485 nt of DNA. It comes from Escherichia coli. GTDB taxonomy: Bacteria; Pseudomonadota; Gammaproteobacteria; Enterobacterales; Enterobacteriaceae. The stretch lies in assembly GCF_003334785.1 (NCBI RefSeq), contig NZ_QOWV01000087.1. One strand, 5' to 3'. The translations under genes were made by a program, and so were the position numbers. Of this stretch, positions 1-485 are shown piece by piece. The first letter of the stretch is position 1. The number at the start of each line of letters is the position of its first letter. The notes below the pieces were generated by a model that had not been told where the DNA came from, ran no database searches, and was given only the letters and a program-made list of their open reading frames with translations.

Positions 1-33
1 GTGTTGACGAACTCCTGCCATGGAACGTAGTAC

Positions 34-396
34 TCACCAATAAATAAGCGTCAATACGGTGCTCCGTTGACGCTTACTTTCATTCGCCCGGTAGCATGAA
101 CCATTATCCGTCAGCCACTCCACTGGAGACGCCGGAAGCTCGCTGCCAAAGCGGCGTTCCACTACTCCCAGCATGACGTCCTGTACTGTTTCACTGTCGA
201 AGCCACCCGTTGTGACCGCCCAGTGCAGTGCCTCACGGTCACAGCAGTCCAGCGCGAACGTGACCCGCAGTTTTTCTCCGTTATCACAGCGGAACTCGAA
301 CCCGTCAGAGCACCATCGCTGATTACTTTCTTTCACAGCCACTCTGCCGGTATGTGCCCGTTTCGATGGCGGTACAGCGGGTTTTCGCTCAAGCAA
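34..396 (-). pseudogene. insD: Internal fragment of an IS2-type (IS3 family) transposase OrfB/InsD, integrase-core (rve/DDE) region. Intact as a 120-codon ORF but truncated relative to the full-length transposase of about 300 aa, so most likely a non-functional relic.
   Basis: The translation [105 protein letters not shown] is near-identical, with a handful of substitutions, to the middle of E. coli IS2 InsD as I recall it. It contains the IS3-family motifs W-x-x-D (D codon at 304..306) and D-N-G-S-x-Y (D codon at 106..108). The glutamate of the DDE triad and everything C-terminal to it are absent, and the last 15 residues ([14 protein letters not shown]) are read from unrelated flank. The annotated start is a TTG (394..396) with no Shine-Dalgarno-like sequence upstream, and the frame stays open upstream to the window edge at 485. 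Confidence 0.85.
45..76. other. Perfect 10-bp inverted repeat (TAAGCGTCAA, 12-nt spacer, TTGACGCTTA), a potential stem-loop or palindromic protein-binding site; function unknown
   Basis: Read directly: 45..54 TAAGCGTCAA is the exact reverse complement of 67..76 TTGACGCTTA. Inside the spacer, CGG (57..59) can pair with CCG (64..66), leaving a 4-nt loop TGCT. On the minus strand the stem is followed by TTTATTGG, a modest T-tract, and it overlaps the 3' end of the transposase-fragment ORF (stop at 34..36). Confidence 0.45.
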
Positions 397-409
397 CAGC
401 GCATTCTGG
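77..409 (-). mobile_element. IS2-like insertion sequence remnant: internal segment of orfB only, with no terminal inverted repeats, no orfA and no orfA/orfB frameshift window in this sequence
   Basis: Protein-level resemblance to IS2 InsD begins at the codons for QNALLLER (about 397..409) and ends just after the codons for SCYRANE (about 79..81). DNA outside these limits does not resemble IS2 ends as I recall them and is visibly more AT-rich. Boundaries are approximate, about +/-10 bp. Confidence 0.7.
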
Positions 410-463
410 GTAACCGGCTCATTTAAACCGTCTGGTCTGTTTCCTCCGGCTCTACAAAAATAA

Positions 464-485
464 TGTCCATCATTTTTAATGGACA
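464..485. repeat. 7-bp inverted repeat TGTCCAT / ATGGACA around CATTTTTA, in an AT-rich tract at the window edge
   Basis: Read directly: 464..470 TGTCCAT and 479..485 ATGGACA are reverse complements, separated by 471..478 CATTTTTA. It may continue beyond the window. Confidence 0.4.

Follow-up and report, generated by a model that had tools for sequence, protein, structure and literature searches.

A reading frame left open across an ISCro1–IS2 junction in Escherichia coli, most probably a by-product of nested transposition

With a probability of roughly 0.93, the reading frame considered here crosses a routine transposition junction, at which an ISCro1 end lies against an IS2 relic and the frame stays open by chance, without creating a meaningful fusion gene. 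The junction is located in a 485-nt stretch of Escherichia coli DNA (the window, analysed at its full length), in which a first-pass annotation had seen the minus-strand frame of a transposase fragment continue into a flank of foreign appearance and had considered an unusual chimeric protein. All components of this arrangement are known and annotated, and junctions of this kind routinely result from nested transposition. The window is identical (100%) to positions 2830798–2831282 of NZ_AP022177.1 from E. coli WP7-S17-ESBL-04, which correspond to positions 6001–6485 of the locus that we refer to as L001. A second chromosome, NZ_OZ547038.1 of E. coli isolate AF58 (locus L002), also matches the window at 100%, and window bases 59–485 are carried by the plasmid pWP7-S17-ESBL-04_2 (NZ_AP022179.1, locus L003). 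An Rfam search of the window with E-values up to 1 detected no known RNA.

The flank had initially been described as unrelated and AT-rich. It is indeed foreign to IS2 and has a GC content of 41%, compared with 57% in the IS2 piece, but it is not anonymous, and the BLASTN comparison that the first-pass annotation had suggested identified it as the left end of ISCro1. When searched alone, window 397–485 was present in 1,663 of 5,426 complete E. coli genomes (coverage of at least 80%), and the matches listed mostly begin at query base 14, which is window position 410. From this base to position 485, the flank equals the first 76 nt of ISCro1 copies on many E. coli chromosomes and plasmids, and more than 1,500 records have ISCro1 ends with exactly this sequence. 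Judged by these matches and by the RefSeq annotation, window 410–485 (plus strand) is the canonical left terminus of ISCro1, a member of the IS66 family, and not anonymous DNA; it comprises the inverted repeat, a leader and the tnpA start codon (ATG, 463–465).

The left inverted repeat of ISCro1 starts with GTAACCGGCTCATTTAAACCGTCTGG at window position 410. Both terminal repeats begin with GTAA, the left one reading GTAACCGGCTC... at 410 and the right one GTAAGCGACTC... at L001 9108, and 18 of their first 30 nt are identical. An independent ISCro1 copy in a tia/porin gene (locus L006) has the same first base (GTAACCGGCTC...) and is accompanied by an 8-bp duplication, GGCCTTGC. The copy in L001 has a length of 2,699 bp; published ISCro1 is 2,699 bp long and makes 8-bp target duplications (PMC12115866), and 8-bp duplications were likewise found for experimentally captured IS66 members (PMC3281130). 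RefSeq annotates the genes tnpA-tnpB-tnpC at L001 6463–9078, with tnpA starting at window position 463 on the plus strand and encoding WP_001339397.1, and the ISCro1 genes match the NCBIfam profiles IS66_access_TnpA (E 1.1e-88) and transpos_IS66 (E 2.4e-143). Different from other ISCro1 copies, the one in the window is without a duplication of its own; its left end adjoins the IS2 relic, while its right end is the outer end of a compound unit.

A hairpin of the form TGTCCAT-N8-ATGGACA is located just after the annotated tnpA ATG (463), with its arms at window 464–470 and 479–485 (L001 6464–6485). The 5' arm takes in the TG of this ATG, and the predicted fold of 464–485 has an energy of -9.6 kcal/mol (z -2.85). 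Alignment with the NCBIfam TnpA profile does not begin before residue 13 of the annotated ISCro1 TnpA. Translation of tnpA may thus truly begin with the ATG at L001 6493, in which case window 463–485 would be a non-coding leader.

The neighbouring segment, window 78–409, is a 332-bp internal fragment of IS2 orfB (insD) on the minus strand. In a sensitive blastn comparison (word size 7) with a complete IS2 of 1,331 bp from locus L005, it aligned to IS2 nt 1036–705 with 99.4% nucleotide identity (two mismatches over the 332 nt) and in the same reading frame as orfB/InsD of this IS3-family element. IS2 homology is restricted to 78–409 and stops at position 409, and the residues upstream of QNALLLERK differ from those at the same place in complete IS2. 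The first-pass annotation was thus correct in stating that the residues upstream of QNALLLER do not match IS2.

In comparison to intact IS2, only nt 705–1036 are left in the relic, and both terminal repeats, orfA, the frameshift site and the catalytic E of the DDE triad are lost. The first two D residues of the triad are retained, but the IS2 fragment terminates with ...CYRANE, nine residues past the second D, and the E of ...ESNGIAE is gone. The Pfam domain rve is represented by model positions 3–82 of 102, and the alignment to the NCBIfam IS2 TnpB profile spans positions 97–215 of 301 and scores 249 bits versus a cut-off of 597. RefSeq lists the segment as a pseudogene (window 70–405, minus strand; 'DDE-type integrase/transposase/recombinase', IS3 family) that is without both termini. 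Active IS2 transposase is an OrfAB fusion produced by frameshifting, as is typical for IS3-family elements. Since IS2 ends, orfA, frameshift site and catalytic E are missing, no transposase can be encoded by the relic, and its product could not be a transposase.

On the opposite side, the relic borders on the IS66-like element ISEc47. Window 1–47 (plus strand) contains the 3' end of its transposase gene tnpC, with the stop codon TAA at 45–47; RefSeq places the complete coding sequence (WP_000080164.1) at L001 4434–6047, and it matches the NCBIfam profile transpos_IS66 (E 4.8e-135). The right terminal inverted repeat occupies window 42–79, and the element ends at position 77 with ...GCTTAC (GTAAGC on the other strand). 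Window 1–77 is identical to the right end of an IS66-like element in locus L004 (NZ_CP104788.1, 1424–5273), which adjoins another IS2 position there. In L004, a complete IS2 is split by this element, the last 77 bp of which are those of window 1–77, and the insertion generated an 8-bp duplication, GCAAGGTT, at IS2 nt 1189–1196. L004 is therefore an independent precedent for an IS66-family element landing in IS2.

A 13-nt inverted repeat, AAATAAGCGTCAA and TTGACGCTTACTT, directly follows the tnpC stop codon in the right end of ISEc47 and has its arms at window 42–54 and 67–79. The RNA fold predicted for this hairpin (window 42–79) reaches -17 kcal/mol (z -5.2), and it could be a terminator-like or a transposase-binding structure.

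ISEc47, the 332-bp IS2 relic and ISCro1 constitute a unit of 5,572 bp (L001 3537–9108), in which both ISs are present in direct orientation. In L001, the unit is inserted into yceK and has a perfect 8-bp duplication, GCAAGGTC, on both sides. The same unit is found in yegP of isolate AF58 (L002 2090–9108), with ATTTGATG on both sides, two SNPs and an ISEc45 insertion. The reconstructed empty sites, each containing one copy of the octamer, match at 100% and contiguously, with at least 80% query coverage, in 5,375 and 5,388 genomes. These target duplications and empty sites show that the whole 5.6-kb unit has moved. The TnpC proteins of ISEc47 and ISCro1 are 51% identical, while similarity at the nucleotide level is patchy and ranges from 63 to 74%. 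The hybrid pair formed by the outer ends of the unit is alike at 16 of 30 nt and thereby matches as well as the elements' own pairs do (17 and 18 of 30 nt). The unit has moved at least twice with two different arms, which implies that a single IS66 transposase can pair an ISEc47 left end with an ISCro1 right end.

Compound transposons, such as Tn10 and Tn5, consist of two ISs that mobilise the DNA between them. The ISEc47–ISCro1 unit is similar in that two direct ISs flank a passenger, with unit-wide 8-bp duplications at two sites and empty sites elsewhere. It differs because its arms are two different IS66-family members and not copies of one IS, and because its passenger is merely a 332-bp fragment of a dead IS. 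We regard it as a new but modest case of a familiar type of transposon.

Both additional copies of the unit have been altered by further IS activity or rearrangement. The unit in isolate AF58 has the IS110-like ISEc45 inserted in its ISEc47 transposase gene (L002 4412–5858), which adds a third layer of nesting. In the plasmid copy (L003 1–5000), ISEc47 has been disrupted, and beside the IS2 relic no more than its last 19 bp are left. The first 537 bp of ISEc47 are found in inverted orientation approx. 3.4 kb away, and a copy of IS1203 is present at each break. This layout suggests an IS1203-mediated inversion or deletion. A third target duplication was sought on pWP7-S17-ESBL-04_2, but none was found, the flanks being GCTTATCC and AAGCCATT.

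The most economical and most likely history that we infer for the unit is a double insertion into one IS2. ISEc47 and ISCro1 would each have transposed into the same IS2 copy, with equal orientation and at a distance of 332 bp, for which L004 provides the precedent. Thereafter, the two outer ends (left of ISEc47, right of ISCro1) served as a pair, by which ISEc47, the relic and ISCro1 moved as one unit and the remaining IS2 was left behind; this last step is shown by the duplications and empty sites. The octamers expected in the donor state are CATTCTGG for ISCro1 at IS2 nt 704/705 and TTTCATTC for ISEc47 at IS2 nt 1036/1037. Among the 5,426 genomes, no donor IS2 with either insertion at exactly these positions was found. 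The IS2/ISCro1 junction (window 409/410) occurs as one contiguous piece in three records from two strains in this genome set, while the other full-coverage matches consist of two separate pieces; a search of the plasmid collection for this junction added only the plasmid of the same strain.

A different origin of the junction would be a deletion, in which intramolecular transposition of ISCro1 or ISEc47 removed the adjoining sequence as far as IS2 nt 705 or 1036; in this case too, the frame would be accidental. Such an event would account for the fact that neither IS has an 8-bp duplication of its own at the junction, as CATTCTGG is present at window 402–409 and GCAAGGTC follows the right end of ISCro1, and for the lack of a donor IS2 with the other halves in our search. 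However, movement of the compound unit away from the remaining IS2 would equally lead to the absence of single duplications, and L004 demonstrates that an IS66-family element can insert into IS2 and leave a clean duplication. We consider an IS-mediated deletion unlikely, albeit not negligible. A random deletion independent of ISs is excluded, because both breakpoints are located exactly on canonical IS termini.

Under the preferred reading of a routine transposition junction, the frame is open by chance. The minus-strand translation from window position 483 encounters no stop codon before the TGA at 36–34, and the first-pass annotation had correctly reported the stretch between 396 and 485 as free of stops and quoted its residues accurately. 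The program-listed ORF covers window 34–396 with a TTG start, and the frame as a whole occupies window 34–485 on the minus strand. Beyond the window, it continues for 13 codons up to a TAA at L001 6523–6525, i.e., 38–40 nt past position 485. Only two in-frame start codons precede this TAA, GTG at L001 6499–6501 and GTG at L001 6484–6486; the first of them is located 14–16 nt outside of the window and has a weak AGGT 3 nt upstream. The full ORF (L001 6034–6501) encodes 155 amino acids from this GTG, with the TTG at L001 6394–6396 as an alternative start. It is composed of approx. 35 amino acids antisense to the ISCro1 left end, approx. 110 amino acids of IS2 OrfB and 15 amino acids antisense to the right end of ISEc47.

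Of the two alternatives in the first-pass annotation, an in-frame fusion of the relic to a foreign 5' segment beyond the window is the one not supported; the ORF reaches no foreign gene and crosses the annotated start of ISCro1 tnpA in antisense direction. A stop shortly beyond the window without a plausible start, which the first-pass annotation had named as a refuting outcome, is nearly what the extended sequence contains; the two GTGs, neither with a usable Shine-Dalgarno sequence and both within a predicted hairpin, lie between the stop and the window edge or just at it. In this view, the frame meets no stop when it crosses 409/410 simply because, among the three frames that lead out of the ISCro1 left end, one lacks stops over 38 codons. 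When the flank was shuffled with preservation of its dinucleotides, the frame remained open to the window edge (25 codons or more) in 33% of the shuffles, and in 18% it extended over 38 codons, its actual length, or more. As 18–33% of the shuffles are equally open, the openness is unremarkable. The alternative view in the first-pass annotation, a chance frame at a deletion junction, was thus right with respect to chance, but the junction arose by transposition or, at the most, by a deletion that an IS caused next to itself, and not by a random one.

The open frame is a property of the ISCro1 end and not of this particular junction. The same outward frame, (V)...(R/G)AGGNRPDG..., is open at the ISCro1 end in L006, and it is also open in an ISCro1-like left end in locus L007, which is 94% identical over the first 140 nt. 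ORFs that read outward from IS ends or that are fused to adjacent DNA commonly arise when ISs insert. All ISCro1-type copies examined have this frame open at their left end, and it fuses to whatever adjoins it. In L007 (plasmid NZ_CP047380.1, 1–477, minus strand), PGAP/RefSeq annotates WP_309476000.1 as a 'group II intron maturase-specific domain-containing protein'. Its start codon is a GTG within the ISCro1-like left end, at the position that corresponds to window 484–486, and from there the frame runs out into a maturase gene that is truncated. The annotated protein is probably spurious, an ORF of an IS junction like the one in the window. At the sequence level, nothing sets the window ORF apart from other fusion ORFs at IS ends, such as the one in L007.

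These observations also bear on the idea that the ORF is a real chimeric gene, which would start with a GTG in the ISCro1 left end, be translated through the IS2 OrfB fragment and yield a catalytically dead, truncated piece of the integrase core that might interfere with IS2 transposition. The ORF is continuous over 155 amino acids and has a GTG start, and its translation is therefore formally possible; moreover, the rve core is partly kept, and PGAP accepted the analogous outward ORF in L007. However, a search for Shine-Dalgarno sequences in front of all three starts by anti-Shine-Dalgarno duplex formation revealed none that is usable: the duplex energies are -3.2 kcal/mol for the GTG at 6501, -4.8 kcal/mol for the GTG at 6486 and -3.7 kcal/mol for the TTG at 6396, and the spacing is poor. 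For the TTG, this agrees with the earlier statement that it has no ribosome-binding site, -3.7 kcal/mol being its best duplex. The minus-strand RNA of L001 6410–6530 is predicted to form a stable fold of -36.5 kcal/mol (z -3.8), in which both GTGs are paired. A consensus scan for promoters and terminators on both strands of L001 5900–7000 detected no sigma-70-like site, which is weak evidence because the strict scan also misses the promoter of tnpA. In addition to the openness by chance in 18–33% of the shuffles, the junction is confined to two strains, and exact look-up of the 155-, 150- and 120-amino-acid products among approx. 15 billion predicted proteins found none of them. Finally, the IS2 part is a pseudogene in RefSeq, from which the catalytic E and the entire DNA-binding part contributed by OrfA are missing. 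A functional chimeric gene is therefore very unlikely. Because the ORF has no ribosome-binding site and no detectable promoter, starts within a predicted hairpin and contains an incomplete DDE triad, it encodes a non-functional pseudogene product at best.

An extended version of this idea, in which the triple chimera is translated from its GTG and modulates IS2, and in which the ISCro1 left end more generally acts as a portable start and open frame that makes fusions, is likewise very unlikely. If it were true, the ISCro1 left end would convert truncated target genes into fusion proteins, as WP_309476000.1 would suggest. That the flank is locally diverged IS2, the second outcome that the first-pass annotation had named as refuting, was rejected, since nothing more than the continuity of the frame favours it, and word-size-7 blastn against full IS2 retrieved only chance matches of 9–17 nt within 410–485, a segment with more than 1,500 identical counterparts at ISCro1 ends.

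A frame that is left open over the join of two insertion sequences is thus no evidence for a fusion gene, and a false lead has been removed. A mildly useful by-product of this analysis is the 5.6-kb compound transposon of two different IS66-family elements, which has moved at least twice. More generally, the frame that leads out of the left end of ISCro1 will give rise to such spurious ORFs at any site of insertion, and RefSeq already annotates at least one of them as a protein.
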